A stretch of 64,000 nt of DNA from Leptogorgia sarmentosa (taxonomy: Eukaryota): contig OZ210885.1 of the NCBI GenBank assembly GCA_964658305.1, forward strand, positions 15,872,001 to 15,936,000, given 5' to 3'. The translations under genes and the position numbers were made by a program. Positions 6,581 through 54,150 of this stretch are shown piece by piece; the first letter of the stretch is position 1; every line of letters starts with the position of its first letter. The notes beneath the pieces are model-generated. The model was not told the DNA's origin, did no database searches, and worked only from the letters and a program-made list of their open reading frames with translations.

Positions 6581-7377
6581 ACTTGTCGTATTTCAAAATA
6601 TGTTATTTCGTAGAAGTTGAAGTACCAAAAATTATATAAATCTTGTTTCTTCTTTATTTCTCCTTCAATAATAAATTAGATTATTTAAATCTAGTAACTA
6701 AATCTATTTGTCTGGAGGTAACTTATTACACTTTTATGGAAAGCCATAACTGTCAAAAGTGTGCAAACGTCATTACAAACTGAGGTTCGGAATAAGAAGT
6801 GTAGTTATGGCGTTACATATTGATGTAATGACATTACGTATTCATGTTATAACATTATACATTGTCGTTATGAAGTTACATGCACCGCTCATCACTTTAG
6901 GTACTGCGACTATTTAACTATGTGCTGTAGTTAGAACAACCTGCTCATGTTACATTGTTATATAATGTTATTTTGTCTTTAGGTAAGTACATTATCATAT
7001 TACATACGACGATTTCTATATTACATGATGTTGCCTTTGAAAAGTGACATTCTGCCACTACGGCATTACGCTATGATGTTTTGACACGACACGTTCTGCA
7101 GTCTTGTTCTTGATGTGCACTAATTAACGATACAGTTCCGGTTGACCCGGCTTTACCTCACTGAACTCTATATGAATGTATATCATGGAGTTCAATCAAG
7201 TTCACTGCTTTTTGACCTTTCGTGCCAGTCTCCAGCGTTTCAAAATGGCCACCAGCCATGCAAATTTAAAGTATTTTGATAATTTGATATAAATGAGGAT
7301 TTGCTGCATTTCTATATAAAACGTCCCGAAATTTGCCTCGTTTTATTCAAAAAGTCTTCTTACACTGTTCCCAGCAG

Positions 7378-8544
7378 TGGATGATGTGCTAATGAAAGCA
7401 AATCTGGCTGTCTTTGCCGATCGTTTTCGTGATGAAAGAATCGAACCAGAAACCATTGATGGAGTGAGCGATGATGAATTAATCAGGCTAGGTGTGGTAG
7501 GCTGTTGCGATATATCGATATTTTTCGAATATTGATATTTTTCAAAAATTTCATATATTCGAATTCACAAACATCGAAACCAATGCAAATTCCGTCAAAG
7601 TCAACTTCACGAGGCAACATACCCCTATAAAATTGTACGATTCAACCTGAGAGAATGTACTTACTTCGCTGAGAAACGTAATTTTACGCAGCTACGACGG
7701 ATTTGTGGGCTTCCCACAACTCAAGGACTGTGGCAGTTTTGAAATTTTACACTGTGTATCTAATTGTAAGGATCTCTCGCCGATTTCATGCTCTTGGTCT
7801 GTTTGTGATCTTAAACCAAACCTTGGACCACAGACAAAACTTTATCTATGTCAAATTCAGAAGAATCTTTCCACAAAATCTAGTCTGCCTGATAACAAGT
7901 GTCAAGTGAAGGAAGAATATTTATCTTGTCAAAAGCAAGTTCTTGTTACAAAACTTCAACAGCACATGTATGTATGCAGATATGGAAATGCAGTGCCTTT
8001 ATATGAAGAATCAGATTCAGATTTGCCACCATTCTCATTAACCCAATCTCAATCTACACACATTTCACAGGCATCTCCTAGCAATCCCTCTATTACCTCA
8101 CCTCAAGCCATTCCGGCTCAAACCACTCCTGTTCAAACCACCCCAATTCAAAGCACCCCAGCTCAGACCATGGAAGCTCAAACCATTCCAGCTCAAAATC
8201 CCCCACCTACTGAAGCTTCACAACAGCAGATGCCTGATCCCCTAACAGAGGTTATAGATGTAGATCAGATAAACAGTGAAACGACTGATACATCTTCTCT
8301 GGAAGAAGTGGTTGAAAAGGTTATTGTAAAGTGAATCAAGTGTCTGATCCTGTTGAGATTTTAAGATGCCTTCAGAATGAAGTTGTTATTGGATGCCAAT
8401 TGGAAATACAGAATGTCACAGAGAATATTGAGGTGAGCACTAATTACACACTGGTTGACTGTAGCAATTTACTAAACTGCATTTGAGGAGTTAGATTCTG
8501 TTGACAACTACCGCTTTACACTACAAGTGCAGTTCTATGGAGAA
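7378..8544 (+). pseudogene. HECT (G2E3-like) ligase gene, 5' part with SAM-like N-terminus
   Basis: VDDVLMKANLAVFADRFRDERIEPETIDGVSDDELIRLGV is SAM-like. It is followed by FPQLKDCGSFEILHC...KLYLCQIQKNL, a P/T/Q-rich tract, then DPVEILRCLQNEVVIG...LVD..NLL.TAFEEL....NYRFTLQVQFYGE (start of HECT N-lobe) ending at a GT donor. Confidence 0.7.
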
Positions 8545-8699
8545 GTAATTTTTTTATATGATCACATTATGTATATGCATTCTGTAAGTGCTTATTGTAT
8601 ACATATAGTTTACTCACTTAGAGTGTTGTTTTTTTAAGTGATCATTGTATGCCAAGGTGATATTTGTTTGGAGCAAGTCATATACCGGTCTTTCATCAT

Positions 8700-9292
8700 T
8701 CACACTATCAGCATCATCATGTAATCTGCCACTGCCACATTTTCAAGGCCTTTGTCGGTACGTACCCTGCTTCGTAGGCCATAAATTTGAACTGCTGAAA
8801 CAAAGCAATTTAGAATTGTTTCAGCATGATTATTGTCAGCACGTGACAACATCACAGGAAGTCTAGTGAAGCCATCAATTCCACCATTAACAACTACATG
8901 CCATTGAATAAGTTTATGATTAGTATCAATGTGCCAGATATGCATGTCTACGGAGCCAACACCTTTTTCTGATCTCGCCCCCTGTATTGTCTACGCGATG
9001 GATACTATCTCTGTCTTATTCATCGAACTTTAATACCCTTATCTCTAAGAAGTTGCTTTAGCATATTTTCCTCACAAAATGGGAACTCTACCATAAGCTG
9101 ACCAATTATTTCATCCGGATCATCGTCGCTTATGTCGGAAAATTCCACCTTACTCAAATTGTAGCAACACATTCTCCGACGCATTCTCCGGTAAACAGTG
9201 CTTTCTGTAACATTTAATAAATGGGAAATATCTTGAATGGTAAAGTCATCTTCAATGTATGTTTCTAATACTGACACGGGGATACAAAATTC
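8700..9292 (-). pseudogene. IS3/IS481-type DDE integrase fragment (unit 1)
   Basis: HTH ISHLLNVTESTVYRRM; core [25 protein letters not shown]...[10 protein letters not shown] with two catalytic Asp; truncated before the Glu. Confidence 0.85.
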
Positions 9293-9295
9293 AGG

Positions 9296-9725
9296 TGCAC
9301 AAGATATATTTTTTCCTGATAGGATGATATGAAGTGAGAATAATTATGTAATATATAGTAAATCCACGCTCAAAGTTCCTGGGCAAGATATATTTTTTGG
9401 TGATACGATGATGCTCATTTTCTCCCATAAGAAATGAAAGCATCCCAAGCCATCCATGCATATAGTAATGCCTCTATTTTTTGGTTTAAAGTTGGAATTG
9501 TACAACCCACAATTTTTGCCACCCACAAAATAGCCTGTATGGGATGCTTTTGATTGCTTACAGAAAAAAAATTGCTATGACGATACAAAGTGAGAATAAT
9601 GATGTAATATATAGTAAATCTGAGCAACCTCAAAGTCTCTGGGCAAGATATATGTTTTCGTGATACAATGACACGAAGTGAGAGTAATGACCTAATATAT
9701 AGTAAATCTCAGCCATCTCAAAGTT
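9296..9725. repeat. ~88-bp minisatellite, about 3 degenerate units, interrupted at ~9415-9570
   Basis: Repeated AAGTGAGAATAATGAYGTAATATATAGTAAATCTGAGC..CTCAAAGT..CTGGGCAAGATATAT. The same unit resumes at 17084-17186. Confidence 0.8.
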
Positions 9726-10216: not shown

Positions 10217-12448
10217 ATGGCAGAGGATCAGGTTGGAGATCTTAGAGAGTTCTTTTCCTCTTTACTTGAAATTCTTCATAGGACTAATAAAGTTAGTGTT
10301 TTAGACACTGTTCAACTAGAGTTATGCGAGAGGAGACTTGAGGGAAGCCTTGGTATTATTCTAGCACTTTCTTCAGCTGTAGATGAAGCATCAAGTCTTA
10401 AAGACCTTTTAGATGGATTAACTGACATTCTAACTGCAGTTGAACACAGGATTTATTTTAAATTTGCTGAGAAATGCTGTCGTTGCAGAAAACCTGTACC
10501 AAGATGCTCTTCCAAGTACAGGGGGGAGACCAGCATATAATGTAACAAAAGAGCAGATCAATCAACTTCGCGAGACTGGCATGAATTGGAGAGCCGTGGT
10601 GAAGGTCCTTAGGATAAGTGACAGCACATTGTATAGGCGTAGGCTGGAGTTAAACGTGGCCAAGACATTCTCACCAATTCAGGATGATGAACTTGACCGC
10701 ATAATTCAAGATATATTGAGCTTAACTCCCTACAGTGGTGAAAGCTATGTTAAAGCAGCCCTCCAGGGTTGAGGAATTGCAGTTCAGAGAGCTAGAATAA
10801 GAGAAAGTCTCTTTCGTATTGACCCTGTTGGGAGGGCAATAAGACGACGACGTCAGATTGTCAGGAGGACATACAATGTTACTTTTTCAAACCACCTCTG
10901 GCATATAGACTCCAATCAAACTGATCTCTTGGAGATTCGTCATCCATGGATGTATCAGTGGCTTTAGTTGTGCAATCATTTATCTCCATTGCTGTGTGGA
11001 CAACAAAGCCGTATCAGTTTTGGAATTTTTTGAAGGTGGTGTCCATGACTTTGGTCTTCCTAAGAGGGTCTGTGCTGACCGTGGGATGGAAAATGTGGAA
11101 GTTGCACGGTAGATGATCAGAACCGAGGGTTAAATAGAGGCAGCTTTATTGCAGGAAGAAGTGTCCACAACCAAAGGATTGAAAGGTTGTGGGCCGAGGT
11201 TAACAAGGTGAGCTCAGCTGTTTATATAGACTTATTTCGCTTCCTTGAAGGCTATGGCTTGCTGGACTCACTAAGTGAGATGCACCTTTATGCTTTGCAC
11301 TTTGTTTATTTGCCTCGAATAAGTGCTTCATTACAAGAATTTCGGCAACAATGGAATCACCATGGTTTGTTTACTATGAATCACCAGTCTCCTCTGGCCA
11401 GTGCCAGATTATCTAGGGGGCAATTGGGCCATTTGCCCCCGGCTCCAGCTCAAAAGCTTGTTTACCGGCCCAAGAAAAACAATGTAAAAAAACTTTCAGT
11501 TACTGTGGGTTTCGAAAAAACAAATTTTGATTAAAAATTGGTCAATTGAAAGCCAGGAAATTCTAGAGTCCTAAATTACTCAAGAATTATCTGCATGTAT
11601 AGACAGATTGCAAACTTCAACCTACTTAGCATCATAGGCGTACGAGGCCGGCGGCCCCAAAAAAATTCAAATTGGAAAATTCGGGCACTGATTTTGAGCA
11701 TAATTCGGGCATCATGAGGAATAGGTTGAAGGAATAAGGTAATGTCAACAATCCTCCAGTCGTTCACCTGAACGAGCGTACCAAGAAAGTGGAGTTAGGA
11801 CTTTGAAATCGCCGTTTCCGGCAATCCGAGGTTGTAAAAGTTCAAAAATTTCTCGCTCGGTGCCAACCATGGTGGCGCCTCGTGACATTCGCTCCCCTCA
11901 AATTCGGGCAAAGATAAACTTTCTGCCCCCCTCTGAAAAAATGTACCATGTACGCTTATGCTCAGCATTGAACACAAAATACTAGACTCACTTAATTTAA
12001 TGTCGCTGTGGTAAATGCCACTATCATGTTAAAATGCTATTCCCTATGTTCATGCATATTATCGTTTTTGACTATATAACGGACAAGACTTTCAATTTCA
12101 TTACATATATGTTTCATGTTTTCATATTCACCAAATTACGGCCCTTTAATTTTTGTTTGTCCCCGGCCCAATGACGGGTTAATCCGGCGCTGCCTATGGC
12201 ATACAGGTATGCTAAATCACATGCAAGATTTTGAAGGGGATACAACATTTTATGGCACAGATTTTTATCAAACATTCACTAACATCCAATCAGACAATGT
12301 TACTGTTCCTGAAACTGCTGTTGTCTTAACACCAGAGCAGATTGATCTTCTGGAACAATCTATACACCCTCTTGAAGATGATGGTAATCATGGTATCAAT
12401 CATTACACGAATGCTCTTGACATTTTGCAAAGCTTCAATTTAGATTGA
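10217..12448 (+). pseudogene. IS3/IS481-type DDE integrase, full length but decayed (unit 2)
   Basis: Start [53 protein letters not shown] (Glu ~34-35 residues after the second Asp); WNHH..SPLALW; acidic tail DDGNHGINHY. Stops and frameshifts are present, and it is split by the 11399-12192 insertion. Confidence 0.9.
11399..12192. mobile_element. Non-autonomous hAT-like element (794 bp)
   Basis: TIRs CAGTGCCAGATT / AATCCGGCGCTG, flanked by CCTCTGGC and CCTATGGC (8 bp, 1 mismatch). Confidence 0.75.
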
Positions 12449-13806
12449 ATGCAAGTTGACGTGCAGCAAATGAAGTCGGGCCGATTGCTTTCCTCCACCT
12501 CCAAGTAAAGTACATTTGGAAATAAATTTTCCTTACCTTATTAACCAGTTAGGTACATGAATATAAAATACAACTCATCTATGTTTTTGTCCTGCTTTGT
12601 GCAAAAATTTCGTCTTCCTGATTACATGCACATTATATTCTTGCCTACATAACCAATAGCAATGTTCCAGGTCCTCAACTGTACCATGAACAATTGCTCA
12701 ATTTACATATTACTATTGGCTGACTTGAGAATAATAAAACATGCAAGCGACGAGAAAGTAACAAATTCCTGCATATATTGTACTTATACCAACACAGATT
12801 GTAATGATGTGCTTTCATTGCTTCATCAACTCTACTATATTTTACAAACTATGCATAATGCCAAGTCCACTTTGCATATAAGGAAGGGAAATGAGTCTGA
12901 ATTTACACAATCATACAGAAAAGCAAATTTAATTGAATTCTCAACATTTCACCATCATAACATGGACAAAATAATACAACTTTATAATAAATATGAAACA
13001 ATACATTGCTGTAACTACCATAACAGTTTTTTCATAAATGCAAATAATACAGTTTGTAGCTATCTGTACAGGAGAGCGAGGAGACCGTCTCTGAGCTTAA
13101 CGTTGGCAAGAACCTTGCAACTAACATGCAATGATTATGTTAAAGCTAGTCCAGATTAAACAATTGTAAACCCCCAGGCCATTGTATCCTTTATGATAAA
13201 GTTGAACTCCTCTGCAAGCTCGTTGTATGCCTGGTATGTTGAGGGTAGTTCCAATACAGGGCCACAAGTGTGAGCAATTGGCCTTCTAGAAGCTTCAGTG
13301 AGTTCCAAAAATGTAACGCCTATGCTGGTACAAGTAATAACATCACTACCAGTAACAAAAGCAAAGAACTGGCTTACTCTACCACCATCTAGGGATCTTA
13401 TATATCTCTTTAGATGGTCTAAACAAGCATGTTCAGCTTCAGACAATGGACTAGCACGAAGAAGCTAACAATTTTCCTTGGGGTTGGCTTTTTGGCATCA
13501 TACATCTCCTTCAAACTGTTTACAGATTGAAAGGGACTAAAAGATTTAAGCACAGCTATGATACTTGCAAAACAATCAATGATATACTTAGGTTTTTGCA
13601 ACATTTCTTGATGAGCTAACTCGTTTATGGTTTGTAAAATGTTATCTTTAGTAACATTACGTTTACATTTGTAATTACCCAGCACATCAAGTAAATCATC
13701 ATCATCCATGCTCAAATTACCAGACAAGGCATCTACCAAGGTATCTCTTTCCTCAGAAGACATATACAGTTGAAAGGAATCAAACAGGAAGTCGTTGGAC
13801 ACACTT

Positions 13807-15024
13807 TGTAGGGTATATCTGGCGATAAGGACGAGTTCCATACTGAATCGACAATCGACGTTTTGTGTTTGATTTATATAATTGGTCGACACGTAAAAAC
13901 TACAGATAAGCAAACAACATTTAAATACATATACAACTAAACAGGACTACATATACGAATCACATAAGTATCACTGACATATAAAACATATAGTGATATA
14001 CAGGGTGTATCAAAAAAAGCGCAATCCAAGTTTAAGGCTTTATAACCAAAATAATATAGATTTCCATGTCTTAACTTTTAGTTCATGTTTTAGCCCCATC
14101 GTTTTTCTACTCAATAAGTGGTCGATTGTGACTTTTTAGGCCATTTAGGACTTCAAAATAAGTGATTTACTGCAAGCAGTCAATTTTAGATGCTTCAAAT
14201 TCGACTTTCTTAATTCAGAAGGGGACGTTATCGTTACATGCGAATATTTTGTTTTGAAATATTTTCGCGAAATAATTTTAAAGTCTTAGGCATCATGCTA
14301 CAGCTCACTACAGCAGAAAGAACTTTATTGTTGAAGGTTACTTGGTAACAAAAAGTATTCAGGAAGTGTTAACATTGTTTCGAATAGCTTTCCCGGATCG
14401 ACAAGTCCCAAATTCGACGACCGTTTGGCGTAACGTACGTAAATACCGGCAGATACAGCTTGAAGCAGATGCTTTACATGGAAATCATGAACTAATAAGA
14501 AGAGTTGCACGGGAAATGCAACGTCGAAGTGATTTGTGTGTGCTGAGAAATGCCGGCCACGTCGAATGATTGTAACCAACTAAGTTAAATTTTTAATAAA
14601 ATTCAAGCTATCTCAAATTTTAAATTGTCCAATCACACATACTAAAAATAACATTACTCGTTCATTTCCTACTCAAATTTAACAAACAAGCAGTCTTAAG
14701 AAAGCGGAATGATAGAGCTTTCTAACGGTGGTAAATATAGCCTATTTTCTATTTCTTTTCGTTATGAAAATTGCATTTGAACGTAGGATTGCGTTTTTTT
14801 TGAGACACCCTGTATAACATACCTCTGTCCTCGTATTTTACAATAAACTACAGTACGTTTCCAAGTACGAACGATTTCGAGTATGAACAGATACGATGTC
14901 AATTACAAGATACAAATACGTCCAGGAGCGTTTACTTTTATACTCAATTTGCATACACGTAACACAATACCTTACAACACATACGTCACACTACATTACA
15001 ACACATACGTCACATTACATTACA
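13807..15024. mobile_element. Solo LTR (~400 bp once the nested mariner is removed) inserted in a HECT exon
   Basis: TGTA...TACA termini with 5-bp TSD CACTT (13802-13806, 15025-15029). Removal restores FGDESV-SNDFLF. Confidence 0.85.
14001..14812 (+). mobile_element. Internally deleted Tc1/mariner element
   Basis: TIRs CAGGGTGTATCAAAAAAAGCGCAATCC / GGATTGCGTTTTTTTTGAGACACCCTG with TA on both sides. Remnant transposase at 14295-14569 joins an N-terminal HTH (FPDRQVPNSTTVWRNVRKYR) to the C-terminal CVLRNAGHVE. Confidence 0.9.
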
Positions 15025-15904
15025 CACTTTCATCCCCAAAAAGTGCTGCTGCAATGAATGCTGGTGATAAGTGTATGGGAAAATACTTCTCTCTGACATA
15101 TCCATAAACCAAAACGCGTGCAATGGCTTGCCAATGGGATTTTTGGTAGTCGTGCCTGATACTTGGAACCTTTTCCTGTGTGCCAAGTGTCAGTGAATCA
15201 AAAACATGCTGCCAAAAATTGGTCAGCATTTCCAACACTACACCTCTACCACTGCCGTTTTCAGGATTACCATCATTTCCAATAATGGTGACGTGTTTGA
15301 AGGAATTTAAAATACTTGGATCTTGGAAGATTTCTACTACTACATTTCGTATCAGATTCCTGTGCACAATGATGTTTCTATGTTCCAGAATTTCATCGTC
15401 TAGTTCCAAAAACTTTTCAACTGAAGAATAAAAGGGGATAATATAACAATTGCATGGTAAAAGTAATAAACCTTTTCCAAACAAAAAAAACAAAGAAAGT
15501 AATTAATATGTGGATGTAATATCTGTGAATGTGCAATGTCAGTCTGTTACACATTTTTGGTATACTTTTTGTAAGGCTAACAATATTTTCTGCGATATGA
15601 CTAGTAAACAACAATAGCATGGTGAATACTCCATTGTGTGACAGCACTCTCCCATTGACAAATAAAATTGTGGCAATCCCGTGGCATTTGATGAAAATAT
15701 TAAAGTAGAGCACATCAGGGTGCATTACCTCAAATGAGTAATGAATCAATTAAGACATGACACAGAATTGCATGTACGTGTATGTAACTCAATAAAAAAC
15801 TCACCAGTTTCTGAACTGTCATTGTTAGTTGGTTGTACTTGATATGATATATCAGAATGAGGTGAATAATCTGGCTGAACCGGAGGTAAATTAGTTGACA
15901 GAGT

Positions 15905-16222
15905 GAATCTGAGGTGAATTAGTTGGCTGAAGCTGAGGTGAATTAGTTGGCTGTATCTGAGGTGAATTAGTTGGCTGAATCTGAGGTGAATTAGTTGGCT
16001 GAATCTGAGGTGAATTAGTTGGCTGAATCTGAGGTGAATTAGTTGGCTGAAGCTGAGGTGAATTAGTTGGCTGAAGCTGAGGTGAATTAGTTGGCTGTAT
16101 CTGAGGTGAACTAGTTGGCTGAATCTGAGGTGAATTAGTTGGCTGAATCTGAGGTGAATTAGTTGGCTGAAGCTGAGGTGAATTAGTTGACTGAATCTGA
16201 GGTGAATTAGTTGACTGAATCT
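15905..16222. repeat. 24-bp coding tandem repeat (~13 units) in a HECT gene exon, encoding QPTNSPQ(I/L)
   Basis: Unit GAATCTGAGGTGAATTAGTTGGCT repeated head-to-tail with no spacers; ORF 15891-16274. Confidence 0.95.
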
Positions 16223-16943
16223 CGTATGGATCAACTGGTTGTGCAAAACGTATAATAAGTGGCTGAACATCCATAAAATGAGTTTCATTCTCAATGTGTT
16301 CTTCAAGGGTTTCTTCAGTCTAAATGCAGAACAATGAGTGAAATTAAGATAAAATATCTCCGCCAAATAATAATAACTTCAGTATAGAGTGAATCAAAAG
16401 TTTGGAACACAAACAAATAACACAGGTGTAATAAGTGAGAAAGTGTACATGTGTACGTATGTACACAAATTATTCCAAAAATTCTCCTATTATTTACCAT
16501 TTACATGTATCGACCATCCTTTAAATGATGCAAATATATATACCTCACACAGTAGAAAGGGCATTGATATTTGTGGTGACTTAATGTGGTGACTTAAATT
16601 ATAATAAATATCATTACCATCTTGTTATTTTGTGATGACAAAGGCAGCCTGGTTGAGTCAACAATTTGATCTGCTGGTTGTACATAAACAGGTTTTAATC
16701 CCTTGAATATGCGATGAATCATTACACCATTTTGTCCAGGAGCAAGTGTTGGTGGAAGCAGAGAACTGTGGATAGACATCAGGATTTCAAAATCTGTATG
16801 TGGAGGGATTTTATCCTCAAATGCTTCTTTTATAGCCAATTCCACCTGGCATGCATCCATTAATTTCATGTTAATTTTCAAACTCGTCAACTGAATTTTA
16901 AATCTCAACTACCAAACATTGTATTTCAACTTACAATCTTGCC

Positions 16944-17083: not shown

Positions 17084-17186
17084 TATAGTAAATCTGAGCA
17101 ATCTCAAAGTTCCTGGGCATGATATATTTTTTCGTCATACGATGATAGAAGTGAGAATAATGACGTAATATATAGTAAAATCTGAG
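17084..17186. repeat. Continuation of the ~88-bp minisatellite
   Basis: TATAGTAAATCTGAGCAATCTCAAAGTTCCTGGGCATGATATATTTTTT...AAGTGAGAATAATGACGTAATATATAGTAA matches the 9296-9725 unit. Confidence 0.8.
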
Positions 17187-25527: not shown

Positions 25528-25700
25528 CACTCCCCCATATAGCTCGAGCTCGAGCTATATGTCCAGTTGAGACTGGCTATGTGTTCGTTAGTTCAAAGTT
25601 CTGGGCGAAACAAAACAAACAAATTTAAAGTAAACTAAGATAGCTATAGTTTGTGTTGATTCATGCAATAACTTAGCTATTTTCAGTTCTTCATCAACCG

Positions 25701-30914: not shown

Positions 30915-30954
30915 TAACTGGCGATACAGCTATCCCGTCTCGGAGGTGCCACTT

Positions 30955-38030: not shown

Positions 38031-38783
38031 GACCTTACGCCTTATGACGTCATAAAGGTTAACATGTACCGTGAATTCTGGTCTTAGTAGTTAAATTCCA
38101 AACCACGAAAATGGCGGGCTTGTTAGTTGGAAATACTTCAGGTGCTTTTTTTTGAAAATGAAATCATTTTTGGTGACCCTAGTTCTTCTAAGAGCCCTTG
38201 TACAGGTGGCCGCTAAGTTACCAATACTGTTTACAGATCGATGTGGCGTATTTTTCATTCAAAATATGGCGTTAATGTCCCAAGATCAGTTGTTCAAGTT
38301 CTTTTGGCTGAGCTTGATCCATTGGGAACCCAGCAAAGAAAAGCTCATCGTCTGTAAAGGCTTACCTTAAGTTGAAGTTTGATTGAGATTCTACGAGTCA
38401 TTGGTCAGGAACGTAGGAGTCATGTGTGAGATAGCGCGGCAATCCATGAGCTTCAGTCTTCAAAGTGTGCGAATGGCCATTTCGATATATATTGGGTGGG
38501 TGCAATTTGGATTTTAGTCAGAATTTGGGTGGGAGTGTGACTCCTACGTTCCTGACCAATGACTCGTAGAATCTCAATCAAACTTCAACTTAAGGTAAGT
38601 CTCGTTTAATTTTCTAATTCTACTTCGTCATTGGTCTACGTCACTACGGAGTCACGTGTGAGACTTTAAAGCAATGGCCATGAGCAATAGTGGAATATTG
38701 GCATTTGGCAACCCTGCCAGATGTTGTATTAAACAAGTTAACAATGTGAAAAGAACATTCAGTAATATTAATAATAACATAGT

Positions 38784-39776: not shown

Positions 39777-41994
39777 ATCAGAAGTTGGAGGGTGTGATGA
39801 AGTGGATGTGGATGTTGTGGGTTGGAGGGTAGGGTTAGTGTGTTTCTTTTCCTGGGTAGAAGAATAGGAAAATTAATTAACATATTTGTAAGGTATGGCC
39901 ACCAGGATTGGGTTGGCTAGTAAGGAGCAACAAGGATTCCTGTTGCCTCCTCCTCAGTAATTTTCTGTAACACTCTCTGGATAATGCAAAAAGGTGGGAA
40001 TGCATAGAATGTTAAATCCTTCCAAGAAATATGGAAAGCATTGATAGAGTAAGCCCCCGGGTCAGGCGTAAATGAAATGTATGTCTTGCACTTAAAATTC
40101 AGCCTTGAGGCAAACAGGTCTATAGTTGGTGTGATGTTTAGTTTTCTAATAGCTTGGTCAAACACTGCTTGGCTCAGGGACCATTCTATGTCCCTACGGG
40201 TGTTCCTGGATTCTAAATCTGCTAATGTGTTGTCCTTTCCTGGTATATGTGCTACCGTTAGCCAAATATCATTGTCAATACATAGTTGCCAAATGTCTGC
40301 CACAAGCATGTTTAGTTCTTCAGAATGACTAGTGCCCATTTGATTTAAACAGGACATTGCTATAGTATTATCAGTTAAGATTTTGACATGTTTGTGTTTC
40401 AGTTCAGATAAAAAACATTGAATTGCAAAGGCAATAGCTTTAGTTTCCAGCCAGTTTATGTGACGTTGACTCTCTTCTACGACATGTTTGTGTTTCAGTT
40501 CAGATAAAAAACATTGAATTGCAAAGGCAATAGCTTTAGTTTCCAGCCAGTTTATGTGACGTTGACTCTCTTCTACTGACCATGTGCCCCCAGTGGTTAT
40601 TTTACCAAAGGAACACCCCCAGCCGATTTTGGAGGCATCTGTGCTCATGGTAGCAGTAGGCTGATGATGTGAAATAACATTATAACAATGTTCAATATTT
40701 CTGGCCCACCAAGTCAGGTCCTTCTGGGCTTGAGGGGACCAGGTCATTGGCCTGTCAAAATTGCCTTTGTTCTCTTTGAGTGCCTTAGTTTTGTTCATGT
40801 CTAACCATCTGTAGTGCAGGGGTCTATACATGACTCCTGGGAAACTAGATGTTAAAAGGCCTAGGACTCTGGCTACCTCACGAATTAAGGGTTTGCTAGA
40901 GTTCATAAGTGTTTGACAAGCATCTTTTATTTTGGCTGCTTTCTCACATGTGAGAGTAATTGTCATATTGATGGAGTCAAGGACAAACCCAAGAAACACA
41001 AGTTTTTGTGTAGGTTGTAATACTGATTTTTCAGGGTGGACAACAAATCCCACTCTGTCTAGTAAAGTAAGTGTATCAATGAGGTTTTGTACACATTGTG
41101 CAAAATTAAAACCTATCAGAAATGAGTCATCAATAAAAATTACAGACATGTGCCCCTTGTTATGCAAGGTAGAGAAAATAGGCTTCAAAAGCTTTGTGAA
41201 TTTTCTGGGGCATGGAGCCAAATCCGTTAGGAAAACATGTGTATTGGTACAGTTTTCCCCTCCAATAAAACTTCAAGTATTTTTGATGTTCTGGGTGAAT
41301 TTTCACCGAGTAGTAAGCGTCTTTTAAGTCAATGGAGGCCATGTAACAACCTGGTCGCATCATACGCACAGCTGACCATATTGTGTCCATTTTGAAAAGG
41401 TGGTATTTTACACTTTGGTTTAGACGTTTTAATTTTTAAAATCATGCGGAAATGCCCATCCTTTTTTGGACGGAGAAAAATAGGGGAGATAAATTGACCT
41501 GGTTCATTTGTTGATGGTCTTATTACCCCTTTCTGTAATAGGATTTCGATCTCAGAGTCGATAAACTGCGATTCTGTGTTGGACCACTGCAGTTGTAGAG
41601 GTTTAGTTAGTTGAGCTGGACATTGCTCGAATTCAATGAGTTGTCCGGACACTGTTTCCAGAATTTCTGGATCAGATGTGAGTGATTTCCACTCATGAAG
41701 GTAACAAGACAGTTGTCCCGCATAGGATTGTGAAACTTTTCCCTCAAAATAACGTATAAGTGACGGGACTAGGGCCGTATACTGGCTTACCTGATTCAAA
41801 TTATTTAGCTTGGTAATGGCAGTTACTTCTTGGGTTGTTGCAGGTTCCCTCGTTTGAAATTGTTTTGAAACAGAACCGATAGAGGTTGTCCTCGGCGGTT
41901 GTCCACTCGTCGGTACGACTGGGGCGCTCCCCGTAAAAAAGACGACGGTTGATTTTGCCGCCTTTGATTTGAATTGCTTTGAGGCCTTTGTCAC
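39760..41994 (-). pseudogene. DIRS RT-RNase H-methyltransferase-like ORF, frameshifted with a premature stop
   Basis: SPIFLRPKKDG..RMI, SIDLKDAYY, IFIDD, STDAS..GWG, HINWLE, TDN, HIPGKDNTLAD, IDLFAS and YAFPPF. TAG at 39917 replaces W of PYWPTQSWW. Confidence 0.92.
40385..40576. repeat. Exact 96-bp tandem duplication in the DIRS RNase H region
   Basis: 40385-40480 equals 40481-40576; VEESQRHINWLETKAIAFAIQCFLSELKHKHV appears twice. Confidence 0.95.
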
Positions 41995-43043
41995 GGCCAG
42001 CCTGTGGAGGATGACGATGGCGTGGTACTTGTATTGCCGATCTTATTCGTAGCTTTGATACGCGTCAGCTCCGTTTGGAGGTCGTTTCCAAACAGAGAGT
42101 CTGTAATAGGCCCACTTGGTGAGCACAGGCCGAGATAACCTTTGTTTAAATGCGGCCTAATGTTGTCACGTCTTCGTACTGACAAGTCGTAACTCATGTG
42201 GCTCATAAGCGCCAAGGCGTCTGTGTTCATGCGAACAAGACTGTTGATATCAATGTCTTTTGATTGACTTTGGGCGGTTAGAAGCGCGTCAGTGGTTTTC
42301 AATGTGATGTAAGCAGCTTTACAAAGCTGATTTTGGATGCGTGACAGTTTCGTGTCCGCACCTCGCACTACATTTGGCAATTTTGCCCATATTTCGGGAT
42401 TAACCCGAGGGACCAGAACTTGTTCACAGTTGACTGGTCGAAGGTGTTTATCAAGTTTATCCTTCAGTTGGTCATCGCCAAGTTTATTCAGCCATCGTTT
42501 ATTAACGATTTGTGCAAGTTTGTCGTGCACAGCTAGCCCTGTGGGCTCTGTTTCGTCAAGGGACTGTGCAATCTCCTCGAGCAAAGCGTTGTCGCTTGGC
42601 TTGTCATTTTGGGCGCCATCTTGGCTTGTCGATGTTTCGACAGTTACATTTGTGCGGCGCTCGTCGTCTAATAGCAGTTCGCTATCGGATTCACTGTCTT
42701 CAGACTTATTTTGTGAATCATGGGCTAATTTAGCCTTTTTTGCAGATATTTCTGCTGTGGCGACCCCATCTCTGTGTGGGTCATTTGCTTCGTGCAAGCG
42801 TTTGAGTGATTCACTCATGGAACACATATTTGCATTCAAGCTTGACAGTAACTGGACCACGGTGTCGTTGTTCGGTGACAGTCGGGTTTCGTATTCTTCC
42901 TGCTCGGCCAGAAGCTGAGCATCTTCATCTGTAGTTTCTTGTTGATCCATATCTTCCGATTTGCAGTTCACACAATAATGTTTGTGCAACAACCTGTTGC
43001 ACGACGTTCGCTCAGTAGAAACCAACGCAAAACTGAAGCTCAT
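41991..43043 (-). CDS. DIRS ORF1 (gag-like)
   Basis: RPVNC..VLVPRVNPEIW, LSVRRRDNIRPHL and LFGNDL; first ORF inside the DIRS ends. Confidence 0.85.
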   Translation of the reverse strand: MSFSFALVSTERTSCNRLLHKHYCVNCKSEDMDQQETTDEDAQLLAEQEEYETRLSPNNDTVVQLLSSLNANMCSMSESLKRLHEANDPHRDGVATAEISAKKAKLAHDSQNKSEDSESDSELLLDDERRTNVTVETSTSQDGAQNDKPSDNALLEEIAQSLDETEPTGLAVHDKLAQIVNKRWLNKLGDDQLKDKLDKHLRPVNCEQVLVPRVNPEIWAKLPNVVRGADTKLSRIQNQLCKAAYITLKTTDALLTAQSQSKDIDINSLVRMNTDALALMSHMSYDLSVRRRDNIRPHLNKGYLGLCSPSGPITDSLFGNDLQTELTRIKATNKIGNTSTTPSSSSTGWP

Positions 43044-45410
43044 GGATTGCAGCGCTATCTCACACGTGACTCCGTAGTGACGTAGACCAATGACGAAGTA
43101 GAATTATCTGGCTTAAACTGACCAATGATCTGCATATTATTCCCTCGTTCTTTTAAGAATCTATTAAGGAATTGCAAGCTTGTCCAACACTCTTACGAAC
43201 AGGTAGAGGCACAGAAAATGGAAGTACGGTCAGTGCAGTGTTTCCTTCGGAGAGACGATAATGATTCGTTATCTGGTTTGTGTGCTCACTGTTACGGCTC
43301 ATCGCATGCAAATCAACAGAGGCGTGGTGGTCCTTACTGCGAAGGAGCTGGAGTTCATTGTGGATTAACCTGTTTAAGGATATGGTAGATATCGGGGATT
43401 TGGATACAAGCAACAGCATGCATATGGAATGCCTTTGGTTTTCATTCAACAAAATAAGCGAAAATGAGTTGAGTCAAGTTCAAAGTAATTGGAACAATCA
43501 CTATATACCAAACCATGGCTGGGATTCCAAACAAACTGTACTTTTTGCCAGAAGAGATTGGATCAGAAGATTAGAAACCATTTAATCCTGCTGATCTCAG
43601 AGAAGCCGAATATGAAGTTCACTCTGCTGATACAGATGATTCTAACAATGAAATAAGTGACACCAGTGACCACCATTGATATTTTAACTATGCACTTCAA
43701 ACTCTTGGATTTGACCATCCAACCAGTTAGAGAGAAAGCTTGCATGTTTATCAAACATTGTTAACCAATGCCACTTAGTTATAATAAGTCATTTACTCTA
43801 ATATGGTTGTAAGCAATATGCATCGAATAATAGAAAACACAAAAAAAGAACAGTTAGAACAAATGAAGGCTGCTTTGTTGGATTTTTTGTTTAATTAACA
43901 TTTATTGTTACCTTTTATGTATATACGGTTCTTGTACCGAAAATGACAGAACACAATTAAACCATCAAATATCCTTGAAGAGTTACACCTCATGAACTGT
44001 CAACTGTTTAATGAACAAATATTTCAAATATTAACATCAATAAACTTAAACATGTGAATATATTTTTCATGTTTAACCAAAACTGAAAGAATTCAAAATG
44101 ACCAAATCCATTTCTAATGTGAAAAGTCACCAGTTAATTGAAACAGTCTATTGACCATATTATCATGCTTGACCAAAACTGGGGGAATTAAATGGAAAAA
44201 TCCATTTTTCCCTTGAACACTTCGTATTCTTCGTAGACTGTTGGCAGGTGTAAGGTAGTTGAGCATGTATTTGCTGTTGGAAAATTTCCATCTGTTAACT
44301 CTATAGTGGGTGTTGAGTCAAAGCCCAAAGGTGGAGGCACATTCGCTCCGGTGATAAAGACAAGCACATCTTCAAGATTGGCTGATGCTTCATCAACTAG
44401 AAATAAATACAAGTCTTAGTTAAGATGAAATGTACATGAATAATATACGAGGAGAGTGTTAAGAACTAGAAGGAAAGATATAAGAAAATATTTCTGGAGA
44501 GTAATGCGAGATAATCAAACATGATATGTAATTTTCATCAAGTCAATTTGCTCTGCTTCTGGGCAAATGACAAGTTATACCATGGCATTATAAAACCATT
44601 GAATTATCACATATGATAAACTTACGTTGGCAGTCTTGTAGAAGTTGATGTTTTCACTAGTAAACATTTCACGAAACTGTTCAGGGTACTGAATGATGCT
44701 ATCAAGTATGCAAGGGTCTGAAGGGCATCTTTGAGCCCTTCGATTAATGATCGGAGTCCATCAATAAGAATGTGTTTAGTGAAAATCCGTTCCTTTTCTT
44801 CAACACGACTAGCATAGCTGGCATGTCCCTGTGCTTCTAATATGGCTTGGATATTAGGATCATTCAAGTTTTCTAGTAGCATTTCAATTGTCGAGGAAGC
44901 AGCAATCTAAATCAATATGAAATATTTGCTCAGGGAAGGATAAAAATATTCATAACATTAAGAAAAACTATACTTTCCAATCCATAATTTTTTACCAAGA
45001 ATTAAGATATGATAACTTACTTGTTGTACTTTGTACCTCACAGCCGGATCTGGAATGTCGGCAATCTGTGGTTCTAATGTATATCCATAAGCTATAGCGT
45101 TGGGCAAAAGAAGTTACCAGCAGGTCCTTCATGGGCAATAGACCAAGCAATCAACACCCCAGCAGTGCGGTAATGATCATTCCTTCGCGCTGAAAATATA
45201 ATTTAAAGTATTATTTTTATTTAAATCAATGCATATGCGTGACAATTGAAATTCTTGAGCGTTTTTATAGCATCTGTTTGGTTAATGCCATAATGTTAAC
45301 AGTTGGATTGAGTTTCCCGGTGATAGAATGATATTAAATCATTCATTTAACACATTTTTGGAGATACCAGTTGACTCATCAAACACCATGATGCTACACA
45401 GCATGACATG

Positions 45411-48400
45411 CAGGGACGTAGCGACCGGGGGGGTGTGGGGGGTGGTACACCCCCAAATCATGTTATTTAGAAAAAATCAGGTAAATTAGAAGCAAATACA
45501 AATTAAATTCAGGTAATTTGTATCGTCAAACCTGATGCGATTTTGTGTAAATTAAAATGTAAATAATAGAAGTTGGGTCAAAAAATGACAATCACAGAAA
45601 CAGGATGACAACACGTGGGCCCAAAGCGCTGCACGCGTCCAACGCCAACATGTTTTTGCGAAATACGACACCCTTGTTTACAACGCACACAGCGCACAAA
45701 AGCGCAGTTATCCCATTCATTCAAAGGAAACGTAAACGGTTGTGGAATGGACAGATAGACTGATAGTATTGATCACTGCCAGTGCCATGCAATGCAATGA
45801 AACACAGAAAGATCAGTGAACGCTCAAATCGAAATCGCGTCGTTTGTTTGCGATGTGACAAGGTATTAAATTCAGATAACGCGACGTACCATCAGCAATC
45901 AAAGCATGGAGGTTTAACACCAAAGTTTCAAAACGTAGCAGATAAATCGCAGCGACTTCTTGACTTTGGAAGTCCAAAGCCTGCGTCTGAGGTTAGTTGA
46001 TGCTAATCATGTTATATTCCTTATATGCGCACAGTTTTGATCGTTCTGTAGTGTATGGTGTGTACTCGCAAGAGAACGTGTAATTGGCTGAAGATTCGAC
46101 GCCTGTCAAATTTTTACGGCGACAGTCGTTACTAATCTATTCATTGTGTTGTATTATTGTAGCCTACAAACACCACAGTCACTGTCGAATTGCAAGAGGA
46201 CGTTTTAGAGAATGATCCAATTATTGACATTGACGACGTCCCATCCACATCTACCGCCTACTGCGGCGAAACCAAGGACGAGCCACACCAAATCGGCGAC
46301 TCTGCATGCTCATTAGAATCCCCTGCAACTGTCCCAATAGTCATAGAATACGCTGGAAATTCCAAAGGGGGAAACGATGCTCAAGAAGGGAATAAATTGC
46401 GAGTCATCCCACAATTAGAAATAGTTCCCATGCATGAAGAGTCCAGTGATGATGATGATGATGATGTCCAGGCCGACCCAGCCAAAGAAGGACAATGTGA
46501 TGACGTTTGTACTCTGACTGAAGCAGAAGCTACACGGGAGTATTTTCGCTGCCTGGGACAAGTACGATGGAGTTCTGAAAAATTAGCAACCTGTGTTAGC
46601 CAAGCATCTGACCAAGGTCAAATTCATCTGAAATCTGGGTATACAGAACTCATCGATACTTGCGACAAGGTTGTCAAAATGCTCGGCGAGACGAAAATAT
46701 TGGCGGTGGCCGGACTAAAAGCCATACAGAACCAGTCACCAAGCGATGCCCAGGAGTTTGATGAGAAGATTGAATCAAATAACCTGTTTGAACACGATCC
46801 TGCTAGAAGACCATCGAAATTGACTAGCAACCAAGTAAAGTATGCAATCCATCTTGGACCATGCCAACCACAACTGTCAGTTTACCTGCAGACACGAAAT
46901 GCTGCCAACGCCAAAAAGGGAAAACAGAGTTCGTTTTCAAAAACCTGGTTTCAAGATTATCCGTACTTGGAGTACAGTGTGACTGAAAATAAAGCGTACT
47001 GTTTCGTCTGCAGTTTGTTCGGAGAAGGCGGTTATCAGAGTGCGCAGAGTGAAAGATCAGATAGGTCGTGGATTGAAGGCATTGACGACTGGTCAAAGAT
47101 GAAAGGTAGTCGAGGAAAAGGCAAACTAGGAAAGCTTGAGACACACTTCAGCAGTGGAGCGCACGCCTCTGCACTTCGAGTCTATACCGACTTTGTCCGC
47201 GAAGGTGGCCAGATCGACACGTTGTTGACGAAGCAGCAGCAACGAGGCATTATCGACAGCGAAACGGAGAAGGAAAAGAACAGAGAGGTTATCGAGATGC
47301 TCTTTGACGTGGCTAAAACTCTTGCAAGAAATGGGATGGCATTTCATGGCAACAACGCAGATGAAGACGGAAACTTCAGACAGACAGTGCAACTTCTTTC
47401 GCGCCACAACCCAGTGATGAGAGCCTGGATAGGTAATCGCGCTGTACGTAAGCATCATGCCACATACCTCAGCCCACAGAGTCAGAACGAGTTCATTAGC
47501 CTGTTGAGCGAGGAAGTGAGAAGCAGAATAAGCACTTGCATTAAGAATGCTGGTTTCTGCTCAGTTATGGCAGACACCACGCCAGACGTCAGTCACAATG
47601 ATCAGCTTTCTGTTGCTGTCCGTTATGTCGATAGTGAGACATGCATGCCAAAAGAGCGTTTGGTGAGGATCGCCGTCACGAAAGACAAGACAGGAGCTGG
47701 ACAAGCCGAAGATATCGTGAAGTGTTTGAAACAATCTGACATTCCATTATCCGCTGTCATGTTCCAAACCTACGACTCAACTGCAAGCATGTCTGGGAAA
47801 TTCAATGGCGCCCAACAGAAGCTGAGTGAATTGATGAAGAGAAAAATTCCGTACATCAAGTGTACCCCGCATGGGGTGAATCTCGTAGTGGAGCACGGTT
47901 GCGCAGCCTCGCCATTAATTGGAAAGGTGTTCATGGTCTTGGAGCAAATTGTTGTATTTTTTAGCAGCAGCACGAAAAGGCACGAAGAATTGCAACAAAA
48001 GTCCAACGAAGTTGAAAATTTCCTGCAGTTGCGCAACCTGTCCAAGACAAGATGGACAGCCCGTCCCGAATCCGTTGAAGCTGTTTGGAGAGGCCTAGAT
48101 GCCATTCTCTCTGCTCTCGATTCCATTAAAGATTCCAGCACGTCTGACAAGGAGTCGAAGACAAAAGCAGTGGCACTGATCAACAACATCATCAACATCG
48201 ACTTTATCTGTGGGATTATGTTTTTGAAGAATGTGATGTTCAAAACGAAACTACTTGCTGATTTCCTTCAAGGAGAGACTGTGGACATTGCTGGTGTTAT
48301 CATTGCAATAGATGCAACCCACGGTTGCTTACAAAAAATGCGAGGGGATGAGAAAGCAGTCGACGACCAAGTGCATGCCGCGATTGCAGTTGCTGGAAGC

Positions 48401-49541
48401 ATTGGCGCCGACCCAGTGGCAGATTTTTCCAGGTTGCATTGAGTAAGAAGACCTTCGGCACGCCTGGATAGTCAGCCAGAATCCGCAGCTACGGAATTGG
48501 GAAACATTGCCACCTTTTATCGCACAGAATTTTTCAAGTTCATCGATCAGTTGTGTGCCACGTTGATGGAAAAAGGCGATTCCCTCAAAGATACGTTTCA
48601 GCCCTTCCTGAAATTGCTGAATCCAGAAGATCCCGGGACGGTGGAAGACGTGCAAACATTGATAGCCATGTTTCCGTCAGTGTTCTCGCAAGATTCAAGT
48701 GCAGCAATTCACAGCGAATTGACCGTATTTTTTGAGTTCGCGACAAAGGAGCATAAACGAGAACAAGATCAACGCCAGGCAGAAGGACTGGAAGCAAAAC
48801 CGATGAGCCATACAATTGCTGCAAACATCGCTCTTCGTACAGCACAAAACCATGGTCTCTCTTGCTAGTTGCCAAGCTTTACAAGTTGTTTTTAACAGCC
48901 GCTCCGGCCGTTGTTAAGAACGAGCGATCGTTTAGTTTGCTAAAGATTGTGAAAAGCTATTCGCGTAACAAGATATCCGCAGAACGTCTCAATGACTGTA
49001 TGATTCTTGCTGCAGGAAAGGATGTCACTGACACACCGTCGATACTAATAAATTGGCAAAAAAGTGGTCCATCTTGAAAAAGCGACGACTGCAAATGGAT
49101 TGAGAACACTTTGCCAAGTTTAAGGGCCATGCTTCTGGCTAGCTATAAACACGATACGTCAGTTCATCTAGCATCTAAACTTGGCTTTTGAACGTTTTGG
49201 CAGAGGACACATGTAAATAATATCTCCGCTTAATGATCTACTACACTATAGTCATAGATATAAAATTTTTACATTATGAATCAAACATACATTATTTTAG
49301 ATTCTTAAATACATGTGGGTTGTGGGCTATGGGTTGTCTCTTTTTTAAAATATTTTTAACAGTGTTGAAATACTTGTGTTGAGTACTTAATTTCTTGGAA
49401 TGTCGTGGGAAATATGTTAGGGACGCATGGGTCACCAGAATTACCTAGCTAAATTTTCAGGTAAATTCCACTAATATTTTTTCAAATCAGGTAAAAATGT
49501 GCATACACCCCCCCAACTTCGAAGTGATCGCTACGTCCCTG
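45411..49541 (+). mobile_element. Complete hAT transposon (Tip100/ZMYM1-like), 4131 bp, in a HECT intron
   Basis: TIRs CAGGGACGTAGCGA / TCGCTACGTCCCTG; perfect 8-bp TSD ATGACATG (45403-45410, 49542-49549). Confidence 0.96.
45782..49103 (+). pseudogene. hAT transposase, lightly damaged
   Basis: 5' exon CLRC...HQQSKH; TTF-type finger WFQDYPYLEYS..AYCFVC; YLSPQSQNE; MADTTPDVSHNDQLSV; TYDSTASM; CTPH; TRW; NERSFS. TGA at 48440 and frameshifts near 48865 and 49035. Confidence 0.92.
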
Positions 49542-52297
49542 ATGACATGTGTTAAATAGAATTGCCCATTAAACACCACTACTGCACCAGCTACTGCACA
49601 TGTAAAATTTAATTGCTCTTAATGTTTTAAAGAATTAATCATTTTTATAACACATACATACCTGTATAATTTGGGAAGAGTGTTCGGCATTGTGCTGGTC
49701 CAACAAAGATCCCAAAATTTTCATTCACTGATTTTACTAACAGTCGAAGATATTCCCATTGAGGGCCACCTGCATCAACTGCCCCTTCACTATAACCATC
49801 ATCGTCAGCAAAACGGACTGATAGTCTTGCTCGCGGGTTGAACTTTTTCTTTCCAATGAGTCTACAGGAATCCTCCAAAATTGCACTTCTGCGAACATTT
49901 ACTAGTGATATTCCACAATTATCTGCACACTCCAGCATATTATCTTTGATGTTCTGTAATACTTGTACCAGTGGTATAACACTGGAAGTCGTATAGAGCG
50001 TATGATCATACAAGATGACGACACAAAGTGTAAAGTACAAATGGATTTTGATCATTGTTGTAATTATATTGCTTTAACCAAAATGATAAAAAAGAATAAA
50101 ATGTTAGTGTAACACTGAAACACTTTTTAATATAATATATCATTCCCCCCATATTACTTCTATTGAGATCTTAATCTTCATTAGTTGAAAACCCATCTGC
50201 ACCAATATTGGTGTCTTTTTGATCACCAGACAAAATTGCATCTTCTTCCACCAGAGATATATATGAGCTAAAATAAACATTAAAAAATGAGTTCTATATC
50301 AGAAAATTATAGTAAAATATTAAAAATTAAATTTAATATTTAAATATTAAATTTAATACCATGAATATTAACACAACAAAATAACACATCTGAAGGCTTA
50401 TAACAGTAACAAGAAAGCCTTGTGGATTCGGTTTCTTGACTGACCATATGTATGTCAATAAAGTACATTTCTATGCACCATGCAGACATCTGAGTTTAAT
50501 TTGATCATGAGAATTAATAAACACCATTCATTGTTAGATATATTAGTGATGGTACTTATTTTGTTAATTAAATAAAACATATATTATTATTTAATAATTT
50601 ACCTGAAAGACCCTGACATAACTACTGCTACTGCTGAGACTCTGGCTACCACTGCTACATGTAGATAAATAACCATTCTGTAGTGAGCTTACAGGTCGTG
50701 ATCTAGACGGTTCAGAAAAAGTGTATGCTGAGATATCTTATACAAATTAGAAACGTCACTGTTTACAATTAACCTGATCAAATATGTGAACAGTACTCTA
50801 CAAACATACTAACTATAACTAACACTAAATGTATGGGCCAAATATTGAATACCACATCATGACAAGGTTGTACCAAATATTTTTCTACCAGTCAGTTACC
50901 CTAATGGACTGGTCAAAAAGTTATGACCCTCCCACTCTCTCCACTTAGGGTACAGTATATAGGGTACTAAAAACGTAAACTCCTTTACTTAACAAATTGG
51001 GGGAGAGCACATATAATATTTTGACTTTATAAACATTAAAGGAATAGCTCTGTTGTGTTTTATATGTACTTGATCCCAAAGAAATCACAATCAAAATGCA
51101 TACCCTATCACTCAAGATTTCAAAACAGTGAAACGTTTCTTATCCTCCCTGAAGAATTCCAGGCAAAAATTAACCTCCCACTCCAGGCTCCTTGATAGCA
51201 GGGGGTTCAGATATTAAATGGAATGTCATTAACTTTTAATATAAAACGCTATAAACAAATAACGTTATTTAATATAATTCAATTTTGTCAGGACAGATAC
51301 CTTTGATGTGTTACTTCTGGTAATTGCAGCAGAAGTACTAGGTTCCTCTGTACCAAGAGAGTGAATTACAGACTCGCTGCCAAAATCACATCCGTCACTT
51401 CATTTCCATTATCATTGTTCAAAAGATGTCTCTGTACAAGGTACAATGTTATGCGGTTAAACGTTTTGCCAATGTCTTCTTTGTATTTGTCCAGCTGAAA
51501 TATTTGAGTTGGTTGTCCAGGTAACGTTAGAACTAGAGTGCCATCAGGATAGGCCAAAGTGTAGTCTTCGTTTGGATCAAAATTTCGGTCATGTGCAGAA
51601 TGCTTGTCCACGGCTTTACTCAACAATGGTACTTTACGAATATCTGAAAGGACACGAACCATCATCGCCTTTCTTTTAATTGATTTAAGAACTCCATTGA
51701 CTAACTTCATCAATCCAACATTTATCATGACCTCCGTGCTACCAACTGCTTCATTCTTCTTCACTTTTTTGTTTGTATTTATTTGTTCTTGTCGCTGAGA
51801 AGACAATCGCTTACGAAATTGATCGAAAGTTTGTACTTTCTTCTCGATATTCTTCTCACTAGGTTTCTCAGTTTCCTTTTGGATTAGTTCTTCAACTTGC
51901 ACCTGTTTTCCACAATTGTGACAGAAATTAAATTCTTGTAAATTGACTACCCCACATCTAATACATTTCATGTTGAAAACAAAATCGGTGCTTGAAGAAA
52001 ACTCTAATATTGGCGGGAAACAAGATTACACGCTTTCTATATCTATGGCCTGGAATTGCATACTGGAAGTACTTCATGTAACATATATTTCGTGTTTCTC
52101 CCAGATATGGACAAAGGGTATAGATATGGTATAGATAATTAAAAAGTGCCGGAAAATTTTTACCAACTGTAATAAAAGCATTAGTTGGCAGGGTCCCCAG
52201 AGCATTTCTGGGGCCGTGGGAAAATTCCCTATTAGGCCCTCTTTCTGGTCCTCCTCCCAAAATTCCATTTCGCAGGCCCTCCTAGCCTGCCCGAGGC

Positions 52298-53161: not shown

Positions 53162-54150
<989 letters not shown>

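Follow-up and report, generated by a model that had tools for sequence, protein, structure and literature searches.

Convergent HECT ubiquitin-ligase genes accompany IS3EU transposases in decayed transposons of Leptogorgia sarmentosa and in related elements

We analysed a 64-kb stretch of Leptogorgia sarmentosa DNA (contig OZ210885.1, positions 15,872,001 to 15,936,000; hereafter the window), which has 39% GC and zero N, is crowded with nested mobile elements and holds genes with named relatives in octocorals, an anemone, a jellyfish, bivalves and a sea star. Our subject is three units in which a DDE transposase gene faces a second gene tail-to-tail; an initial annotation, made from the sequence alone, had described all three as convergent pairs of an integrase and a spliced HECT E3 ubiquitin ligase (Table 1). 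In the Pfam scan that it had suggested, four transposase pieces, those of units 1, 2 and 3 and a fragment at 52303-52845, match rva_4 (PF24764). The window cores agree with published IS3EU-1_DR, IS3EU-1_HM and IS3EU-1_SK rows in the available part of the PMC10045372 supplement, a match made by eye and not by a joint tree with Repbase sequences, and together these results bear out the earlier reading of the integrase as IS3EU.

Units 1 and 2 belong to deep transposase clade I (DD34E), and unit 3 and the fourth fragment to clade II, the transposases of the two clades being ~26-30% identical. The complete DDE triad survives, among the window units, in unit 2 alone, whose gene is damaged by a stop, by frameshifts and by a ~790-bp insert at about 11400-12190. 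Unit 1 keeps the helix-turn-helix region and the core up to the second aspartate and has lost the region of the catalytic glutamate, and unit 3 lacks its 5' end and lost its first catalytic aspartate at the DIRS-like insertion. The fourth fragment, overlooked previously, is a second copy of the 5' half of the unit 3 transposase; the 15-bp array just upstream of it is a probable remnant of a terminal inverted repeat (TIR), and the whole segment 52303-53159 is directed towards the start of the ligase gene and is possibly what remains of an inverted dimer of the unit 3 element.

The second genes of units 2 and 3 end in C-lobes that match Pfam HECT (PF00632) and keep the catalytic cysteine that had been noted there, and the distances between the convergent stop codons, given earlier as ~700 and ~385 bp, measure 707 bp in unit 2 and 384 bp in unit 3. 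The convergent pairing is thus upheld by Pfam for units 2 and 3, and the HECT of unit 1 is unconfirmed. The unit 1 partner reaches a 10-residue motif resembling the first HECT strand, after which the gene ends; the motif scores 1.7 bits against our own HECT N-lobe profile, a value matched by 23 of 500 shuffles, and is possibly the first strand of an N-lobe. Neither a C-lobe nor a catalytic cysteine was found in 7378-8544, and this gene gave no usable Atlas match. In unit 2 the domain had been called spliced; it is not spliced but a single open reading frame (ORF) in the 95%-identical relative P0001, and in the window a frameshift near 13465 and an insertion of 1.2 kb break up its exon. The ligases carry three types of N-terminal module, which we designate A, B and C. 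Eight of ten matches to the first exon of the unit 3 ligase align along the entire exon at 42-59% identity, and several of them have Pfam HECT; compared with full-length relatives, in which the order is zinc ribbon, type A module, CUE in some and HECT, this exon is ~55% identical whereas the HECT part reaches merely ~30-40%.

Every transposase and ligase gene of the window is broken. No pair of TIRs with a target-site duplication (TSD), and no TA..TA (TAYGG..CCRTA) ends, were found to bound any unit within the window, where the copies are truncated and nested. Self-BLASTN gave no match between the coding regions of the units, and their integrase cores are 28-41% identical by tBLASTx, in keeping with the statement of the initial annotation that the units are no local duplications. 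These copies are decayed IS3EU DNA transposons, and they are dead.

Table 1. Features of the three units, their insertions and the kinase-type partner loci (window coordinates unless a locus, L, is named)
Feature	Position	Strand	Evidence
Unit 1 partner gene, frameshifted and truncated	7378..8544	+	SAM-like start (Pfam SAM_2, E 0.021); low-complexity linker
Unit 1 IS3EU transposase fragment, clade I	8703..9343	-	rva_4 at 8703-8990, E 6.6e-28; 51% to L003 transposase (tblastn)
Unit 2 IS3EU transposase pseudogene, clade I, DD34E	10217..12448	+	Pfam rva_4, E 3.3e-21 and 6.3e-31; 67% nucleotide identity to TIR-bounded L003/L049
Unit 2 HECT domain exon, AHTC	13156..15409	-	84-95% identity to single-ORF P0001; Pfam HECT C-lobe at 13159-13464, E 4.5e-05
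1.2-kb insertion in unit 2 HECT exon, 9-bp target duplication	13808..15021		Sequence; inverted ends
24-bp tandem array in unit 2 ligase gene linker	15858..16222	-	Repeat scan
Unit 2 N-terminal module, type B (3' half of predicted ubiquitin-like domain)	16675..16869	-	55% to L049 exon 1; L049 domain fold
Unit 3 IS3EU transposase pseudogene, clade II	38222..43778	+	Pfam rva_4, E 8.5e-06; 66-71% nucleotide identity to L017/L020
Presumed DIRS-like tyrosine-recombinase retroelement in unit 3 transposase	38358..43106	-	Phage_integrase E 2.4e-06; RVT_1 E 2.6e-04; inverted repeats
Unit 3 spliced ligase pseudogene: zinc ribbon, type A N-terminal module, linker, HECT (ANTC)	44163..51971	-	Stops and frameshifts present; Pfam HECT C-lobe at 44191-44415, E 1.4e-08
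hAT-type element in intron of unit 3 ligase gene	45411..49541	+	DUF4371 E 9.5e-13; ends and 8-bp target duplication
Fourth transposase fragment (5' half), unit 3 family, internal deletion	52303..52845	-	84-98% identity to unit 3; rva_4 E 1.4e-08
15-bp tandem array just upstream of fourth transposase	52933..53159		Position and strand bias as in repeat-built TIRs of L020 and L005
Kinase-type partner gene	L095:2432-5732	-	Tail-to-tail with IS3EU transposase
Kinase-type partner gene	L096:11608-14752	-	Tail-to-tail with IS3EU transposase
Kinase-type partner gene	L099:11912-14806	-	Tail-to-tail with IS3EU transposase
Kinase-type partner gene	L088:18537-20380	-	Tail-to-tail with IS3EU transposase

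The linkage count proposed with the first description was run on metagenome loci, retrieved with an alignment of 55 relatives of the unit 2 HECT that included no transposase. The best 80 of 101 loci were taken, which sample solely the intron-free HECT clade of unit 2, and families were defined as clusters at 85% identity. A convergent IS3EU transposase lies downstream of HECT in 28 of the 35 loci that extend at least 1.5 kb beyond the HECT ORF (20 of 23 scorable families), compared with none upstream in the 25 loci with at least 1.5 kb on that side. Orientation is tail-to-tail in 30 of the 31 loci carrying both genes, the exception, L065, having a truncated transposase upstream of a truncated HECT. 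Two of the seven loci that lack a downstream transposase hold another element inserted there, and L002, L041, L043 and L059 come from families in which sister copies have it. Other two-gene DNA transposons stand right downstream of HECT, in the expected transposase position, at L002:3450-7599, with long inverted ends, and at L047:4978-8529. Viral contigs yielded neither HECT nor transposase relatives and GTDB contigs no HECT relative. One query returned 341 clusters of HECT relatives at 50% identity with E values up to 1e-30, and the gene annotations of oyster, scallop, ark clam, sea star, octocorals, anemone and jellyfish list relatives as ordinary genes; P0050 of Paramuricea clavata bears the name 'Werner syndrome ATP-dependent helicase-like', probably from a fused or wrong gene model.

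The shared TIRs and TSD around intact pairs that had been sought from the outset are present in two relatives, L020 (56-5167; 5,112 bp) and L057 (348-6397; 6,050 bp), where TAYGG..CCRTA ends with an exact 6-bp TSD enclosed both genes, the HECT gene included. Inverted repeats also occur at or near both contig ends of L003/L049, L005, L021 and L056. L020, L057 and L049 contain the transposase and one convergent gene, that is, two proteins, and in these three and in L005 both genes begin within about 250 bp of the inner end of a TIR.

Next, we examined the ligase itself. Pfam in units 2 and 3 and an AlphaFold2 model of P0001 (predicted local distance difference test, pLDDT, 91.8) agree with a bilobal HECT domain at the C-terminus. 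The model resembles the HECT domains of HUWE1, NEDD4 and UBR5; its top Foldseek matches are HECT domains (E 4.8e-11) at 13-16% identity, and the cysteine column aligns with the AHTC motif of AREL1. This cysteine is kept in 134 of 136 representatives and in 70 of 71 locus copies that reach the column (150 and 81 examined, respectively). The ratio of nonsynonymous to synonymous substitution rates (dN/dS), an estimate also suggested earlier, is 0.07-0.29 for HECT in seven diverged locus pairs, five further pairs being saturated, and 0.12-0.20 in six comparisons of the window with loci, the transposase giving similar values of 0.14-0.37. Judged by these substitution ratios, the HECT domain is under purifying selection, and the ligase gene is very probably a working part of these elements rather than chance cargo.

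We also searched from the transposase side, where an alignment fetched 24 loci (L081-L104) from metagenome-assembled prokaryote records, 17 of them with at least 4.5 kb downstream; ORFs of at least 85 amino acids alone were sent to Pfam, so that short exons may be missed. These records are labelled as bacterial or archaeal metagenome-assembled genomes, yet their contigs bear spliced animal-type transposons, and the spliced genes and microsatellites suggest that animal host DNA was binned there. Apart from the loci with a convergent HECT, which are weighed below, three of the 17 (L095, L096 and L099) have a convergent spliced protein-kinase gene in the place of HECT, as does L088 with 2 kb downstream; in L100 the second gene has no recognised catalytic domain, and eight of the 17 have no recognised convergent partner. 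Within this last group HECT pieces occur on the same strand in L087 and upstream in L090, L102 and L103. The kinase of the four loci is a conventional protein kinase and not an alpha-kinase, and no TET/JBP gene was seen. Three of the kinase loci have in common a possible Ig-like exon and an N-terminal module weakly like those of the ligases (E 0.008 and 0.015 against types A and C, probability under 5%), and by their transposases L095, L096 and L099 group as a single clade within clade II (FastTree support 0.998). No TIR or TSD was found around the kinase-bearing loci. L100:4468-13336 is an 8.87-kb IS3EU element, a near-perfect palindrome with an exact 6-bp TSD and 4,366-bp arms that are 99.95% identical. 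Besides a transposase, each arm holds a second gene in which SAM-like, type C and Cys-rich parts are present and no HECT match is found; the palindrome may be genuine, as a fold-back element, or may stem from the assembly.

Among the N-terminal modules, the type B domain of L049 (pLDDT 90.3) resembles many ubiquitin-like domains, at best with Z 7.2 and a root-mean-square deviation of 3.4 over 90 residues, and has no Foldseek match below E 0.001; the model thus predicts a ubiquitin-like fold, which is a common fold and not a function. Type A and C profiles show a weak likeness (E 2.7e-04, probability 41.5%), and type B has no profile similarity to type A. Type B accompanies transposase clade I in four of four families (L003/L049, L056/L057, L074 and unit 2), and types A (L005, L020 and unit 3) and C (L021, L044/L045 and L100) accompany clade II in six of six.

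The histories of the two genes were compared in trees of 22 of 28 loci that had enough of both, with loci at least 90% identical dropped and L065 left out. The HECT and transposase trees have three splits with at least 95% support in common and seven conflicting split pairs, and Mantel correlations are rho 0.17 (p 0.039) overall, 0.41 (p 0.017) within clade I and 0.22 (p 0.13) within clade II. Forcing the clade I ligases together, a group defined on the transposase tree once the two trees were known, was rejected (approximately unbiased test, p 0.0005), and the same HECT clade accompanies transposases of both deep clades. The initial annotation had taken the ligase for a fixed component of the element and had named incongruent trees as the result that would speak against this; such incongruence is found at depth and, together with the convergent HECT at five of the 17 transposase-anchored loci and the protein kinase in its place at three, speaks against a strictly fixed pair. 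Since HECT clades mix and module type tracks the transposase clade, these trees are better read as showing exchange of the HECT part, while the TIR-proximal module would stay with its transposase, by function or by plain linkage.

What the ligase does for the element can be proposed with somewhat less than even confidence: the second gene encodes a HECT-type ligase that may tag host proteins restraining the element. Each TIR would drive the adjacent gene inward, as the closeness of both gene starts to a TIR suggests; the N-terminal module (zinc ribbon or SAM, ubiquitin-like domain, sometimes CUE) would pick the substrate; the HECT domain would accept ubiquitin from a host ubiquitin-conjugating enzyme (E2) onto its cysteine and hand it on to that substrate; and elements would swap the central catalytic part by recombination, with several HECT clades or a protein kinase filling the slot. 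A host target has indirect support: the same HECT clade stands beside both deep transposase clades, the slot takes unrelated enzymes, and fungal IS3EU elements carry alpha-kinase and TET/JBP genes. A wider version, possible and distinctly tentative, is that the IS3EU second gene is a modular effector across the superfamily, in which a TIR-linked ubiquitin-like targeting module fused to an exchangeable protein-modifying enzyme (in animals one of several HECT clades or a protein kinase, in fungi an alpha-kinase) would disarm host control; many divergent, lineage-specific invertebrate HECT genes, perhaps including GL-Metazoa, would then be transposon genes.

Several results weigh against a ligase aimed at host proteins. 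A convergent HECT was found at just five of the 17 transposase-anchored loci (four by Pfam and one, L101, by our own profile). The ubiquitin-like module is itself under purifying selection, in some pairs better kept than HECT (75% versus 52%; 66% versus 39%), and shows no arms-race signature. Close HECT pairs give dN/dS of 0.41 and 0.76 (both near-identical) and of 2.6, with very few changes, and one pair is identical. The available portion of the GingerRoot text (PMC6839031) mentions no ligase. Finally, module type follows transposase clade in all ten families, which fits a different target, the element's own transposase.

According to this alternative, the ubiquitin-like module would bind the cognate transposase, and ubiquitination would tune its level or clear the transpososome after strand transfer. 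The conserved module, and its fidelity to the transposase clade while HECT clades mix, speak for it. However, plain linkage would give this association too, since the module is encoded beside the TIR and TIRs must match the transposase. The ten families, being related, are not independent, and proteasomal clearance could not be brought about by a kinase occupying that slot. A predicted complex of the L049 transposase and its cognate type B module scored 0.00 in two runs, made without alignments, control predictions or the HECT domain, and counts neither way. On this evidence we regard action on the transposase as rather unlikely.

It is improbable that the ligase brings some other benefit, such as altered DNA repair, cell cycle or germ-cell survival, or an advantage to the host, with no tie to silencing or to the transposase: purifying selection and cysteine retention name no target, and relatives do pass as ordinary genes in the animals listed above, but nothing points to a specific pathway. 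That the HECT genes are passively captured host fragments without a role, like Pack-type cargo, is very improbable and largely refuted. GingerRoot elements have been reported, in the accessible text of PMC6839031, with host gene fragments, the two trees disagree in their deep splits and no window copy is intact; against this stand the near-constant orientation, the whole domains, the low dN/dS with saturated synonymous sites, the kept cysteine and the splits shared by both trees, which show that sister families have both genes in common. Hardly credible, finally, is a host HECT family beside which IS3EU happens to insert, an idea that could appeal to the seven loci without a downstream transposase but is countered by the inserted elements and transposase-bearing sister copies there, and is refuted for L020 and L057 by the presence of both genes inside one TIR pair with a TSD.

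The units have themselves been targets of insertion. The great length of unit 3 is due to the element in its transposase, which we take from its anatomy to be DIRS-like, and to the hAT element in its ligase gene, and a Tc1/mariner-like element (13994-14819) is nested inside the insertion in the unit 2 HECT exon. An inverted repeat at 9722-9787/16946-17010 was considered as the TIR of unit 2 and rejected: it extends as far as a Tc1-like end at 17085, and a matching 6-bp TSD is lacking. An array of ~88-bp repeats lies on both sides of unit 2 (9300-9724 and 17084-17186), joined to Tc1-like inverted arms, which suggests that unit 2 sits within an older element previously inserted into the array. 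Elsewhere the window contains a Tc1-like transposase fragment at 17657-18496 (DDE_3, E 8.1e-11), a MULE-like gene at 20361-23433 (MULE, E 0.048) and, at 25261-31220, a young long-terminal-repeat (LTR) retrotransposon, presumably of BEL/Pao type by its motifs; its 267-bp LTRs are 99.6% identical, and its minus strand has an open frame of 1,742 codons. About 246 copies of ACAG form a pure microsatellite at 53162-54144, and three ORFs of 217-268 codons without a Pfam match at 60740-64000 are possibly another DNA transposon.

For many animal IS3EU transposons the second protein can thus be named: a ubiquitin ligase that selection has maintained. The pairing makes it possible to test directly whether host ubiquitination is rewritten by a cut-and-paste transposon. 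Some of the HECT genes counted in the genomes of cnidarians, molluscs and echinoderms may be mobile.

Other DNA transposons, namely Ginger1, Dada and Zisupton, carry ubiquitin or SUMO proteases, and plant elements encode VANC anti-silencing proteins. They share with the present elements an accessory gene acting on host protein modification or silencing, but those proteins remove modifiers or bind DNA, whereas the ligase described here is predicted to add ubiquitin. Among HECT proteins, the nearest parallel is in highly divergent animal domains: G2E3 has three RING/PHD-like fingers and a non-functional HECT, and GL-Metazoa is a divergent HECT family of class IV whose divergence is ascribed to lack of constraint (PMC3673628, available part). 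Unlike G2E3, the window-type ligases keep the cysteine and have no Pfam match to PHD or RING fingers, either in 30 relatives of unit 2 or in four full-length relatives of unit 3. No G2E3 or GL-Metazoa sequence was among the relatives retrieved.

The IS3EU superfamily is already known and has been called largely unexplored (PMC11934779); the HECT pairing is what appears new, although Repbase or Kojima 2019 could already name the HECT gene. In the searchable full-text literature, outside which lay Repbase (where second proteins are listed), Kojima 2019, most subscription journals and most supplements, nothing joins IS3EU with HECT, and searches for IS3EU with ubiquitin, or for G2E3, HECT and transposon, returned unrelated papers only. 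The word HECT is absent from the main texts, as far as available, of PMC10045372, PMC6839031, PMC12730594 and PMC11934779, no word beginning with 'transpos' occurs in the available parts of the HECT surveys PMC3673628 and PMC2837046, and the accessible portions of PMC10853768 and bioRxiv 2021.09.26.461848 hold nothing on an IS3EU second gene. PMC10045372 and PMC8232023, in their available sections, attribute to IS3EU two proteins, TA..TA ends and 6-bp TSDs. The elements studied here resemble IS3EU and GingerRoot in these features and in their rva_4-type DDE transposase, and differ in their second protein, a HECT E3 ligase whose N-terminal module is predicted to be ubiquitin-like. The closest comparison is with fungal IS3EU elements, which, in the part of PMC12730594 consulted, carry alpha-kinase and TET/JBP genes, the latter proposed to act against silencing, with the alpha-kinase on the opposite strand in rust fungi. 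TAYGG..CCRTA ends, a 6-bp TSD and an enzyme gene opposite to the transposase are common to both, as far as that text goes, but the enzyme here is a HECT ligase or, in four related loci, a conventional protein kinase.

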